From Owenia fusiformis (taxonomy: Eukaryota), in the NCBI GenBank assembly GCA_903813345.2, contig CAIIXF020000001.1, positions 28,396,001 through 28,460,000 of the forward strand: a DNA stretch of 64,000 bases. Direction: 5' to 3'. The position numbers are program-made. Below, piece after piece: positions 58,301 through 61,300 of this stretch (position 1 is the first letter of the stretch; every line of letters begins with the position of its first letter).

Positions 58301-61300
58301 AAACACTTTTATAGCTTTGACTCAACTTTTTTTCTTGTGACTCACTTTTTTGAAACTACCTGAGTCATGATGACTCGCAAAAATATATGCCTACCGCCAC
58401 CGCTGGATCACATTCATCTGGTTTTATTTTCCCGAGAATTTTGATCTAGTCTTTTTCTGTGCTGAATTGTTAAAATAAAGATTAAAAATTATATTTTTGA
58501 GTTTCATCAATTGTTTATATCAAAAGAATAAAGATATTAATCATAATAAGTGGGTGGGGCAGATGAGTAATGCGCACGCGCAACGAAGCATTTTAAGTGC
58601 AGTGTAACACCAAATAATTGCTTCGTTAGGGTTGGATAAAGCCAGTGTGGACACAATTTTGTCGCTAACCTTCGTTACAAAAATGCTTCGTTAGACTCAA
58701 CCAAGCAGTGTAACAGGTACCAATACAGTCTGGAACCCGAGATTTAAAGGAGACATCGACAAAATTGAAAGAGTTCAGCGCAGAGCCACAAAACTTGTCA
58801 CTGGACTGAACGATAAACCCTACCCAGAAAGACTTAAACAGTTAAAACTATACTCTATGACATACAGACGGAAAAGAGCAGACATGATCCAGGTATTTAA
58901 AATTGTTCATGGTATTGACAGAGTAAATGCAGAGATATTCTTTAATCAGTCAACAGTGAGATATACAAGAGGGCATGACTTTAAACTATACCAGGAAAGA
59001 TCTAGGCTCAATCTTAGAAAGCACTTCTTCTCCCAAAGAGTGATAGCAGACTGGAACAGCCTGCCTGAGAAAGCAGTATGTGCGCCAACCCTGGAAACCT
59101 TTAAGACGAGGATGGATGATCACTGGAAGAGGGAGCACTATATGCTATAGGTTTCTTTTGTTTTGGTCTTGTTCAATGAAATGAGAAGCCAGGTGGCTTA
59201 AGTAATGAGAGGACAACATCACTGGCTTAGTCCACTACGTCCTTATGATGATGATGATGATGATGATGATTAGTAGTGAGGGGATGACATTGTAATTTTT
59301 GTATCGCAGAACTTCAGTATTGTTTCTGAAGCCAAGCGATGAAGAAATGTACACAAAGATAGGTTCATTGTTGAATTCTTTTCCTTTGTAGTGATATCTT
59401 AAAAATTGTCTCCAAGATTTGATGGTTTGCTTTAGAAATGTACAAAAAACTTTCTGTTTGCAGGCAACCAAGAAAGGTGGCAAAGCTCAGCCCGTGAAAG
59501 GCAAGAAGAAGAAGACCATAAAGAAGTTCACAATCGACTGTACCAGACCTGTTGAAGATGGTATCATGGATGCCTCTCTCTTTGTAAGTACCAAGATGGT
59601 CACATAATCCTTTGTCAAATCAAGTTGGTAATTCTGAAATGGTCACATAATTCTTTGTCAAATCCAGTTGGTAACATCTAGCATCATATAGGCCTACCTA
59701 TCACAAATTTGATTTCAGTAATCATCCTTGGTGTATTTTGATGGTGATCCACATGTATTTTAAAGTGTACTGTTGTAAACATGCATTCACAATAACTGAT
59801 TCAAGTGTTGTGCTAATGACTCGAGGATTAGGGTTACCTTCCCTAGTCTGGGCTATTAGGGTTATCTTCCCTAAAGGGCCTTTTTATCTGTCTATAGGAG
59901 AAGTTCCTGCATGAGCGCATAAAGGTCAATGGGAAAACCAACAACTTTGGAACCAATGTGAACATTGAGAAGAACAAGAACAAAGTTGTCATCTCTTCAG
60001 ACATCCCATTCAGCAAGAGGTAAGAAAACACCAATCTTAGTTGCCTGTCATCATAATACATAATCAAGTGGATGAATGGTCAGGCCTACCTATTATACAT
60101 TTTCAAAAATCAATCAGAATTAAAAAAAAAAACTGTCAGCTAAAGAATAATTCCTTAAATATTCTGTTTACCACCATTCACCATTTCACTGTACTCTTGC
60201 GGTTTCATCAGCTAGAAAATTCTTGTCCTAATTAATAAGCTAAATCAAGAAAAATTGTTTTGTCCCAACCTTGTGCAGAATTTAAATAACCAGGTAACTT
60301 AAGTTTCATTGGTTAAAAAATTCTATTTAAGATATAGGATAAATCAAGAAAAAAATTGTTGTCTCAACTTTTTGTGGTGAACTTGAAATGTTACAATCAC
60401 TTGAATAAAACCTGGATATGTGATGGATGCTATTTAAATTGTTACAGATATACATAGCTATTTTGACTATTGCAGTATGTTCCCCCAATTTGCTAGTATG
60501 CCACTGATGGACAATATATTTATAAAATCGCTCTTGTTTTCAGATACCTCAAGTACCTCACCAAGAAGTTTCTGAAGAAGCACCAGCTCCGTGATTGGCT
60601 CAGAGTGGTTGCAGACACCAAGGACTCTTATGATCTGAGATACTTCCAGATCAACAATGAGGAAGAGGAGGAAGATGAAGGCGATGAATAGACTATCTAA
60701 TCTATTGTGACATCATAGACAGTGGATATATAGTGTCTACCTCACACACGGAACTTTCCAGTGTTGTATGATGTACTACTAGCCTCATTGTAATAAAAAG
60801 AAAAAAATGTAAATAATTAAATCTATTGTTGGATTTATTAGGTGTTCAGGACTAAAAGGTGCCTACATTAACTTAAAGTTCCATTGAAAAAGTCTATTGA
60901 CCTTTTCAGTATTTTGCTGAAAATTATAAATTCCAATTTATAAATACATGAAATAGGCTACAGTGGTCTCCCCAGCATTAAAGCAAGTGGGCTGAGATTT
61001 TGAAAATAGGCTTGCGCCCACCTGAAAATAATGAAAAAATGGCATATTTTGACCAATTTTGGTCTGAATTGTGAAAATGAGGATTTTGCACCCACTTGAG
61101 AGAAAATCCTGTGGAGATCACTGGGATATGTTCATCCCACAAATTCAAAGTTGTTTTTCCAAATGTGAAAATGCATGTGTTCTGTATTGCAGAGCCAACA
61201 AAATTTTCCAAAAGGCCTCGGCTTAGTGTCCTGTTTAATTTGTTAAAGAACCCCCATTCTTACCATTGACTATTGATTCTACTGTTTTTGTATGAATCTA

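Follow-up and report, generated by a model that had tools for sequence, protein, structure and literature searches.

The closest described systems to the element reported here are found in vertebrate RPL22L1. In the human gene, as one preprint reports, two stem-loops overlap the acceptor of variant 3 and an RPL22-Halo CLIP peak lies at the site; variant switching is RPL22-dependent, variant 3 is stabilised by an NMD inhibitor, and two human primers carry the sequence CTAGGG-TTCTCTT-CCCTAG (bioRxiv 10.1101/2024.08.15.608201). Upon depletion of L22, L22L1 mRNA rises and the non-coding variant falls (bioRxiv 10.1101/2023.12.29.573614). That second study also describes L22 stem-loops in MDM4 intron 6, together with a stem-loop consensus derived from EBER1 and 28S rRNA. 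In upf1-mutant zebrafish, the NMD isoform of rpl22l1 comes to predominate (PMC7354994). One human study detected no RPL22 CLIP peak on RPL22L1 (PMC12035866). A literature search, with subscription journals and preprint supplements beyond its reach, returned no report of this element outside vertebrates. In this current study, a putative splicing switch in an eL22 (RPL22) gene of the annelid Owenia fusiformis, proposed in an initial annotation made from the sequence, was examined by using RNA-seq junctions, RNA folding, and comparison with related loci.

Results

The window analysed (64 kb in total) contains an eL22 gene on the forward strand. When the window exons were spliced, the product was identical to a 132-aa protein annotated in the database as Owenia fusiformis eL22, and the exons matched Pfam PF01776, in agreement with the initial assignment of this gene as an invertebrate RPL22. 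The 3′ part of exon 1 (54161-54180; ATG at 54172-54174, encoding M-A-P) was placed by means of a loose-end consensus before exon 2 from three RNA-seq runs, which mapped once in the window, at 54164-54180; GTGAGT follows directly 3′ of this exon, and a TOP-like pyrimidine-rich stretch lies just 5′ of it, at about 54148. The boundaries of intron 1 (54181-59463, 5283 nt) were set by the loose end of exon 1 and by the position at which coverage of exon 2 begins; read by eye, this intron holds a retrotransposon-like coding sequence that is broken by a nested insertion. Exon 2 (59464-59583) comprises 40 codons, is in phase 0 at both ends, and was defined by translation, PF01776, and RNA-seq depth and junctions. 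Intron 2 (59584-59897, 314 nt), defined by the junction 59583->59898, ends in a pyrimidine tract and the normal acceptor (59879-59897, AG at 59896-59897), which were recognised from sequence and RNA-seq. Exon 3 (59898-60019, 122 nt) was assigned from RNA-seq, translation, and Pfam. Intron 3 (60020-60543, 524 nt) was supported by 908, 877, and 511 junction reads, and no alternative junction was found for it among those listed in the three runs. Exon 4 (60544-60820) contains the stop codon TAG (60689-60691) and AATAAA (60792-60797); its 3′ end is approximate, with depth dropping after about 60815. Short direct repeats other than the motif described below are also present in intron 2 and intron 3.

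Use of acceptors at intron 2 was assessed in three RNA-seq runs (X19, X20, and X21) from one study, in which joints were listed from 3 reads up. The canonical junction 59583->59898 was covered by 1538, 1433, and 721 reads, respectively. One other GT..AG joint, 59583->59832, was detected in all three runs, with 12, 18, and 7 reads that began at 9, 13, and 5 distinct positions, respectively; this was the only alternative GT..AG joint listed, and it accounted for 37 of 3729 junction reads (about 1%; 0.8, 1.2, and 1.0% per run). The poison 3′ splice site AG (59830-59831) lies in the 5′ arm of the first of two hairpins (see below), and its use adds to exon 3 a 66-nt extension (59832-59897) that translates as G-Y-L-P-stop. 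The premature TAG (59844-59846) is the fifth codon of the extension, in frame, and stands 173 nt before the exon 3/4 junction, which is the last one. Depth in the bin 59847-59897 was 13.9, 17.5, and 10.6, compared with 0-2.7 elsewhere in intron 2. Retention of intron 2, a yeast-type outcome that had also been proposed as a readout, was not seen in these three runs, since intron-body depth (0-2.7, compared with 720-1630 in exons) was a few thousandths of exon depth or less.

These data bear out the initial annotation in one respect and correct it in others. As predicted, an upstream acceptor is used in all three runs, but the site lies 15 nt further upstream than was proposed. The AG at 59845-59846, which had been taken for the poison acceptor, is present with CTAAT upstream of it, and splicing to it would lengthen exon 3 by 51 nt, with TAG as the last added codon and the next junction 122 nt downstream; the corresponding junction 59583->59847, however, is absent from the joints listed in the three runs (threshold 3 reads). 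This "AG" is instead part of the in-frame TAG at 59844-59846 that closes the reading frame, so that the actual stop is codon 5 of the 66-nt extension and not the TAG at the normal acceptor. An ORF search with exon 2 for short ORFs of the alternative isoform yielded one 46-aa ORF running from exon 2 into an intron, which was uninformative on the switch.

A 19-nt motif occurs twice in intron 2, at 59827-59845 and 59855-59873, and has no other copy in the 64 kb. Moreover, when an 18-nt motif was searched with up to 3 mismatches, these two sites were the only ones found in the window; the shuffle mean was 0.12, and two or more matches were obtained in 0 of 100 shuffles. By folding, hairpin 1 (59825-59849) forms a 9-bp stem (59825-59833 with 59841-59849, including two G-U pairs) that carries the loop UUACCUU (59834-59840) and is closed by the pair G59833-C59841. 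Hairpin 2 (59850-59881) forms an inner stem (59856-59861 with 59869-59874) and an outer helix (59850-59854 with 59877-59881), with the loop UUAUCUU (59862-59868) and the closing pair G59861-C59869. Both hairpins fit the published eL22 stem-loop consensus, namely a G-C closing pair with the G on the 5′ side and a loop-terminal U (bioRxiv 10.1101/2023.12.29.573614); sequence and folding thus bear out the near-identical hairpins, G-C closing pairs, and 7-nt loops ending in U that had been described initially. The folding energy was unremarkable, with z-scores of -1.46 (96 nt), -1.71 (hairpin 1), and -2.23 (hairpin 2). One letter separates the two 19-nt copies, and that letter is polymorphic: the sole variant listed inside the hairpins is 59865 T>C (4 of 16 reads in X20), and this loop position also varies between lineages. 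When 54000-64000 was searched with Rfam covariance models, 0 matches were obtained at E <= 1, which indicates that no snoRNA or known RNA family lies there.

Candidate branch points were recognised by their letters. The branch-point-like CTAAA of the normal acceptor (59871-59875) lies in or abuts the 3′ arm of hairpin 2, and its fourth letter is 23 nt from G59897, as had been reckoned initially. For the upstream acceptor, the branch-point-like sequences CTGAT (59796-59800) and CTAAT (59813-59817) are found within 59796-59817. Between CTAAT and the normal acceptor there are four AGs (59830-59831, 59845-59846, 59858-59859, and 59875-59876), each of them located within a stem or at its base.

Related loci were sought in metagenome_contigs with a strict pattern consisting of the hairpin, 10-40 nt, and the start of exon 3. 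This search yielded two loci, L048 and L049, and both (2/2) are eL22 genes, a proportion to be read with the hairpin itself being part of the query. In the window and in both loci, intron 2 falls between an exon ending ..(N/L)F and an exon starting E(K/Q)FL. L048 is a distant invertebrate-type eL22 gene, a protein relative of which is approximately 63-66% identical to the window eL22. Its hairpin core is identical to window hairpin 2 at 19 of 19 positions and stands 28 nt before exon 3, in a 1379-nt intron 2 that is otherwise unalignable with the window; the next best match between the two introns is a 10-mer (E 0.32). Splicing to its TTAG|GG acceptor would also read GYLP-stop, i.e., a stop at codon 5, and CTAAG is found at the place of the window CTAAA. 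L048 has a single consensus hairpin; the stem upstream of it has a U-A closing pair and a 10-nt loop. L049 is a processed copy of mammalian RPL22L1 that represents the alternative isoform. Exon 2 is joined there directly to ..GGTACCTTCCCTAG.., with the acceptor position the same as in the window, and the copy has two hairpins and a 67-nt extension.

When the L049 extension was aligned with the 66 nt of the window, 54 of 72 columns were identical, whereas shuffles averaged 37.2 and peaked at 44, none of them (0/500) reaching 54. Window hairpin 1 resembles L049 hairpin 1 (loop ..TACCTT), and window hairpin 2 resembles L049 hairpin 2. The G-C closing pair is also present in the L048 hairpin and in L049 hairpin 2. 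In all four aligned hairpins, the arms TAGGG / CCCTA are invariant and the last three loop letters are CUU; over the whole hairpin alignment, 15 of 25 positions are conserved, the invariant letters being TAGGGTT..CTTCCCTA. The conservation anticipated for the hairpins is found in L048 and L049, but the covariation proposed alongside it is not significant in this alignment: five of six stem pairs are invariant and one is altered in both arms, as also happens in 269 of 500 shuffles. These alignments show the module to be conserved nearly base for base in two other deep lineages, at the same intron and acceptor position.

Other searches returned unrelated or uninformative loci. The twin-hairpin pattern matched 44 loci in genome_contigs, all of them bacterial or archaeal records; these were rejected as unrelated repeats because a tblastn search of 49 loci (L001-L049) with the three eL22 exons gave matches only in L001, L002, L003, L048, and L049. 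A looser hairpin-plus-exon pattern matched only L050 in genome_contigs, a bacterial-looking locus with no eL22 exon in the 300 nt read, and 0 loci in viral_contigs. Protein-guided scans of genome_contigs returned only eL22 genes that lack an intron at the corresponding position (L001/L052/L053, with in-frame stops, and L002/L051), as well as L003 (a 14-residue fragment) and L054 (a short contiguous copy); none of these informs on intron 2.

Discussion

The pairing of twin hairpins with an unproductive upstream acceptor in intron 2, and its relation to RPL22L1, as proposed in the initial annotation, are strongly supported by homology, since the module recurs with an identically placed acceptor in L049 and in the human primers, and an alternative junction is present in the RNA-seq data; the acceptor and stop were misplaced in that annotation. 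We consider it likely that the twin hairpins correspond to the pair of stem-loops bound by eL22 in mammalian RPL22L1 intron 2, and that hairpins and weak upstream acceptor jointly constitute a splicing switch exerting negative feedback on the eL22 gene itself. According to the mechanism that we propose, surplus eL22 not taken up by rRNA would bind the hairpins. Hairpin 2 would then cover the branch-point-like CUAAA of the normal acceptor, and productive splicing to 59898 would therefore fall. Splicing would instead proceed via an upstream branch point (CTGAT or CTAAT) to the first AG beyond it, at 59830-59831, and the resulting mRNA, with 66 extra nt, TAG at codon 5, and the last junction 173 nt downstream, would be expected to undergo NMD. 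For Owenia, binding by eL22, the way in which splicing would respond to it, removal by NMD, and occlusion of the branch point are inferred.

The conserved block might instead be read by another factor, such as a pyrimidine-tract/UCUU-binding or SR protein, or might be a plain branch-point/acceptor signal, with no role for eL22 in Owenia. The loop and 3′ arm are pyrimidine-rich (UCUUCCC), a branch-point-like CUAA lies in the 3′ arm in both the window and L048, stem covariation is not significant, human variant 3 is altered by SRSF4 knock-down (bioRxiv 10.1101/2024.08.15.608201), and RPL22L1 carries no RPL22 peak in one human CLIP data set (PMC12035866), all of which would fit this explanation. 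However, both arms are invariant in all four aligned hairpins, the three eL22 consensus letters are kept in all copies, both pattern matches fall in eL22 family genes, and human GoldCLIP as well as RPL22 knock-down and reconstitution point to RPL22 (bioRxiv 10.1101/2024.08.15.608201, bioRxiv 10.1101/2023.12.29.573614). We therefore regard a reader other than eL22 as unlikely, while still giving it some weight.

The approximately 1% use of the alternative junction could be harmless splicing noise at a cryptic AG, with the hairpins kept for some other reason, e.g., to direct splicing to the distal acceptor by masking the AGs in between, all four of which are situated in the stems or at their base. 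Also counting against the switch, the poison AG sits within the very stem that eL22 would bind. On the other hand, a steady-state level of about 1% may hide a much larger flux, given the majority rpl22l1 NMD isoform in zebrafish upf1 mutants (PMC7354994). Moreover, the mammalian processed copy was made from exactly the same junction, the human isoform is regulated and NMD-sensitive (bioRxiv 10.1101/2024.08.15.608201), and the frame stops at codon 5 in both invertebrate genes; mere noise thus appears quite improbable. That the alternative isoform serves to make a short protein (47 aa in Owenia, 64 aa in human) we hold to be very improbable: a function has been proposed for the human short isoform (Larionova et al. 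2022, as cited in bioRxiv 10.1101/2024.08.15.608201), but the added peptide has 4 residues in the window and L048 as opposed to 30 unrelated residues in the mammal, and conservation is therefore at the RNA rather than the peptide level. Finally, a functionless chance outcome of a recent 28-nt tandem duplication, which the single polymorphic difference between the copies and the other short direct repeats in introns 2 and 3 might suggest, is judged to be refuted by the metagenome pattern matches, the 19/19 hairpin identity in a gene as distant as L048, the alignability of the whole 66-nt stretch with the mammal, and the separate likeness of each hairpin to its mammalian counterpart.

Returning to the feedback switch, the hairpins and poison site match the mammalian RPL22L1 switch almost letter for letter, and the feedback thus probably predates the split between worms and vertebrates. 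We lean, if only somewhat, towards the view that twin stem-loops and a poison acceptor already formed an eL22 autoregulatory switch in the last common ancestor of annelids and vertebrates and were kept nearly base for base, a view that rests on loci retrieved with a hairpin-containing pattern, outside the scope of which lies the share of animal eL22 genes without the hairpin. If so, the eL22 feedback loop would date from before the protostome-deuterostome split, and the control of vertebrate RPL22L1 by RPL22, which is relevant to MSI-high cancers and p53/MDM4 signalling, would be explained as a remnant of ancestral self-feedback after gene duplication. The 15 invariant letters would likewise represent an eL22 recognition code far more specific than the G-C/U consensus, possibly one that mimics the 28S rRNA site of eL22. 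Few intronic regulatory elements are known to be alignable between protostomes and mammals. The element provides a sharply defined RNA motif for binding and structural work, and Owenia, with apparently one canonical eL22 gene, a simple model in which ribosome-assembly status could show in a single splice choice.

Among known systems, autoregulation of RPL10A (L10a) by AS-NMD, from C. elegans to mammals (PMC4937301), likewise involves a ribosomal protein gene, a deeply conserved intronic element, and an unproductive isoform, but the protein, the element, and the splice-site choice are different. The L22 stem-loops of MDM4 intron 6 belong to another gene and lead to another outcome, exon skipping; the eL22 consensus is loose, whereas the Owenia-type element is conserved over 15 of 25 positions. 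Yeast RPL22A/RPL22B (PMC4838235, PMC5755908, PMC13630204) follow the same logic, in that productive splicing of an eL22 pre-mRNA is reduced by eL22 bound to it, but the intron and RNA structure are different, and the yeast authors see no resemblance of the intronic RNA to rRNA. Unspliced pre-mRNA is what results in yeast, whereas intron retention in Owenia amounts to a few thousandths of exon depth or less. The mammalian RPL22L1 switch, known as "variant 3", "non-coding variant", or "exon 3A" (bioRxiv 10.1101/2024.08.15.608201, bioRxiv 10.1101/2023.12.29.573614, PMC12035866), shares with Owenia the intron position (..F / E(K/Q)FL..), a pair of adjacent stem-loops (GGG/CCC stems, 6-7-nt loops with CUU at the end), an upstream acceptor located within the 5′ arm of hairpin 1, an isoform that is predicted to be unproductive in Owenia as well, and an extension of nearly the same length (66 nt in Owenia and 67 nt in the mammal), the two being identical in 54 of 72 alignment columns. 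The stop, however, is in frame at codon 5 in Owenia and arises by frameshift in mammalian RPL22L1. In mammals, the paralogue RPL22L1 is controlled by RPL22, whereas in Owenia the module resides in the highly expressed canonical eL22 gene itself, and the loop would therefore be autoregulation rather than control of a paralogue. By sequence comparison, the Owenia module is an orthologue of the known RPL22L1-type switch, here in a probably autoregulatory form.

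Structure and splicing of the eL22 gene

An eL22 (RPL22) gene of four exons was found on the + strand of the window. Exon 1, coding for M-A-P, ends at 54180; exons 2 (59464-59583), 3 (59898-60019) and 4 (start at 60544, stop codon at 60689-91) were placed by sequence and translation, and these three larger exons matched Pfam PF01776. A 132-aa database entry labelled as eL22 of the annelid Owenia fusiformis has exactly the sequence of the spliced product. In three stranded RNA-seq runs with the same species label (X19, X20, and X21, all from one study), exon depth was about 700-1600 and every junction was confirmed.

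Several repeats were also seen in the introns. In intron 1 (55200-59150), reverse-transcriptase-like coding sequence was discerned by eye on the + strand at about 55200-55620 and again at about 58730-59150; it appears to be interrupted by an insertion nested within it, about 3.1 kb long, with a motif of the TGTTACAC..GCTTCGTTA type in inverted orientation at its two ends, and a (GAT)n microsatellite (59247-59270) lies directly past the retroelement end. Intron 2 contains a 36-nt direct repeat (59596-59631 and 59639-59674; 94% identical, spacing 43), of which nothing beyond a chance-level 9-mer was kept in L048, a metagenome contig with an invertebrate-type eL22 gene. A 21-nt motif (AGGCCTACCTAT..) is common to intron 2 (59690-59710) and intron 3 (60082-60102) at 86% identity, and intron 3 holds other repeats that recur about every 100 nt (60202-60275 and 60303-60374).

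When junction reads in X19, X20, and X21 were counted, the canonical junction 59583->59898 was covered by 1538, 1433, or 721 reads, respectively, and a second junction, 59583->59832, by 12, 18, or 7 reads (9, 13, or 5 distinct start places), or 0.8%, 1.2%, or 1.0%. With 37 of 3729 junction reads in total, it was the sole alternative GT..AG joint listed at a threshold of 3 reads. The initial annotation had thus rightly anticipated an alternative junction in intron 2, but its predicted 59583->59847 was not listed at that threshold; the acceptor really used is not AG 59845-46 but the AG (59830-31) within TTAG|GG, on the 5' arm of hairpin 1. The stop is likewise not the predicted TAG at the normal acceptor: the extension is 66 nt rather than 51 and translates as G-Y-L-P-stop, with a TAG at codon 5 that precedes the exon 3/4 junction by 173 nt; the last two letters of this TAG are the AG that had been read as the acceptor. 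Depth at 59847-59897 was 13.9, 17.5, and 10.6, versus 0-2.7 in the intron 2 body across the three runs and 0-3 in intron 3, and the signal therefore reflects exon extension and not intron retention, which had been suggested as an alternative sign of regulation and was not seen. No alternative joint was listed for intron 3, the junction of which had 908, 877, and 511 reads. One contig, bearing only the canonical junction, came from an oligo-dT run labelled seawater metagenome. Some minor joints, 59581->59898 carrying additional letters (CTTT or GT; 6-18 reads in each run) and, in X21, 59582->59898, probably reflect allelic or alignment variation where exon 2 ends.

Twin hairpins at the alternative acceptor

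The two near-identical hairpins initially described are borne out: they are copies of a 19-nt motif (59827-45 and 59855-73, one mismatch), and each has a G-C closing pair (GGG/CCC top, G 5') and a 7-nt loop whose last letter is U. The hairpin 1 stem reaches 9 bp, and an extra outer helix is present in hairpin 2. The 18-nt core, allowing up to 3 mismatches, had no further occurrence in the 64 kb; shuffled sequence averaged 0.12 matches, and 0/100 shuffles contained two. Folding energy alone was unremarkable (z from -1.5 to -2.2), and Rfam gave no match at E <= 1 in 54000-64000. The CTAAA, the CTAAT, and AG 59845-46 are present as described, and the distances of 51 nt and 122 nt are correct. The sole polymorphism found inside the hairpins, 59865 T>C (4/16 reads in X20, 1/16 in X19, 0/10 in X21), affects a variable loop position and turns hairpin 2 into an exact copy of hairpin 1; gene conversion between the two could be its source.

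Related elements in other eL22 genes

Metagenome contigs were scanned for TAGGGTT-NN-CTTCCCTA followed, after 10-40 nt, by back-translated AG|E-(K/Q)-F-L. The pattern itself contained the hairpin motif, so both matches, L048 and L049 (the latter with a mammalian RPL22L1 copy), were found through it; eL22 genes accounted for 2/2. In L048, exon 2 ends in ..VANF|gtaagt, intron 2 is 1379 nt long, and exon 3 starts with EQFLHEK. Its one consensus hairpin, TTAGGGTTATCTTCCCTAA, ends 27 nt before exon 3 and is identical to hairpin 2 of the window at 19/19 positions, of which 15 were fixed by the search pattern and the remaining four agree as well. When L048 was compared with intron 2 of the window, the hairpin was the only significant match (E 1.4e-6; next best a 10-mer, E 0.32); comparison with intron 3 gave nothing above 11-mers. 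The TTAG|GG acceptor of L048 would likewise give G-Y-L-P-stop. Because P0050, its closest database relative (90% over exon 3), is equally distant (59-66% identity) from annelid, mollusc, arthropod, and mammalian eL22 proteins, L048 is, by protein comparison, a third deep lineage.

L049 (1008 bp) carries, on its - strand, an RPL22L1-type coding sequence with exons 3 and 4 contiguous and exon 2 (..SGNF) fused straight to GGTACCTTCCCTAG.., which makes the locus a processed copy of the alternative isoform; it is mammalian host DNA within a metagenome record, with a SINE-like repeat after the copy. Unless the contig is of cDNA origin, this is a sign that the isoform entered the germ line of that mammal. 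The acceptor has the same position within hairpin 1 in L049 and the window. When the 66 nt of the window were aligned with the 67 nt of L049, 54/72 columns were identical (shuffle mean 37.2, maximum 44; 0/500 reached 54). Hairpin 2 of L049 is CTAGGG-TTTTCTT-CCCTAG. Each hairpin of L049 resembles the one of the same number in the window (for hairpin 1, ..TACCTT in both loops), so the pair would seem to be ancestral and not the outcome of separate duplications. In the mammal, the extension frame stays open for 30 codons before a stop, in agreement with the reported 64-aa product if exons 1-2 contribute, as we presume, 34 residues.

In a four-hairpin alignment, 15/25 columns were invariant, the variable ones being loop positions 3-4 and the flanks. 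All stem cells paired (24/24); five of six pairs never vary, and the sixth is U-A, U-G or C-G. A covariation shuffle control was not significant (269/500). The invariance of the columns thus proves selection on sequence; it agrees with a hairpin but does not establish one.

Three JGI-derived ORFs of relatives (P0009, P0010, and P0016; 75-80% identical in exon 3) run from the intron end into exon 3 and start with M-F-G-x-x-S-L-N. This back-translates to ..GGN NNN NNN TCN CTN AAY, which would allow GGG and CCCUAAA on either side of a 7-nt loop with U as its last letter, the variable residues falling in the loop. Intronless eL22 with in-frame stop codons was seen in L001/L052/L053 (contigs 440 kb, 494 kb, under a Sediminibacterium MAG), which look like DNA of a eukaryote, e.g. 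a ciliate, that uses a variant genetic code and was binned into a bacterial genome.

A putative feedback loop

The anatomy, junction, stop, and homology are shown by the data above, and their most likely explanation, in our judgment, is a feedback loop. Free eL22 would bind the hairpins, and productive use of the 59897 acceptor would fall because the 3' arm of the hairpin beside it holds its branch-point-like CUAAA (CUAAG in L048). Splicing would shift to a branch point further upstream, paired with the first AG downstream of it; candidates are CTAAT 15 nt and CTGAT 32 nt before the AG, and CTTAC at 17 nt in L048. The early-stop isoform would then be degraded. From human work and the sequence, we infer eL22 binding, the direction of the switch, NMD, and branch-point use. 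A weak point of the scheme is that the poison AG itself falls within hairpin 1.

Another RNA-binding factor might read the element in place of eL22, which we regard as unlikely. That the junction is noise, with hairpins serving another purpose such as hiding intervening AGs, is a doubtful reading, and that the isoform exists to make a short protein is very improbable. Chance duplication is, in our view, excluded by the 2/2 eL22 matches, the 19/19 identity of L048, and the 54/72 mammalian alignment.

Comparison with the vertebrate RPL22L1 switch

Such a switch is already known for human RPL22L1. According to the available parts of one preprint, intron 2 of human L22L1 has "juxtaposed" consensus sites beside the alternative acceptor, and L22 depletion raised L22L1 mRNA and lowered the non-coding variant (bioRxiv 10.1101/2023.12.29.573614). 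The accessible portion of another reports that the human variant rises on Pol I inhibition only with RPL22 present, that an NMD inhibitor stabilises it, and that an RPL22-Halo CLIP peak covers two stem-loops situated right at the splice site (bioRxiv 10.1101/2024.08.15.608201). In the text available from PMC12035866, hairpins are predicted near RPL22L1 exon 3A too, but with no CLIP peak there; in that of PMC7354994, the rpl22l1 NMD isoform forms the majority of transcripts in zebrafish upf1 mutants. Full-text literature searches returned no report of the element outside vertebrates; PMC4937301, in its available text, makes only the general remark that paralogue cross-regulation may descend from autoregulation. 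A probable counterpart of the human switch in the canonical eL22 gene of an annelid and in a third lineage would imply ancestral autoregulation. Two primers printed in the accessible portion of bioRxiv 10.1101/2024.08.15.608201 fall on the human element: the intron-2 primer begins GGGTTCTCTTCCCTAG, and the reverse complement of the primer for variant 3, the alternative-acceptor isoform, ends, in our own reading, CTAGGGTTCTCTTCCC. Apart from one or two letters of the loop, these human sequences are those of the hairpin in the window.
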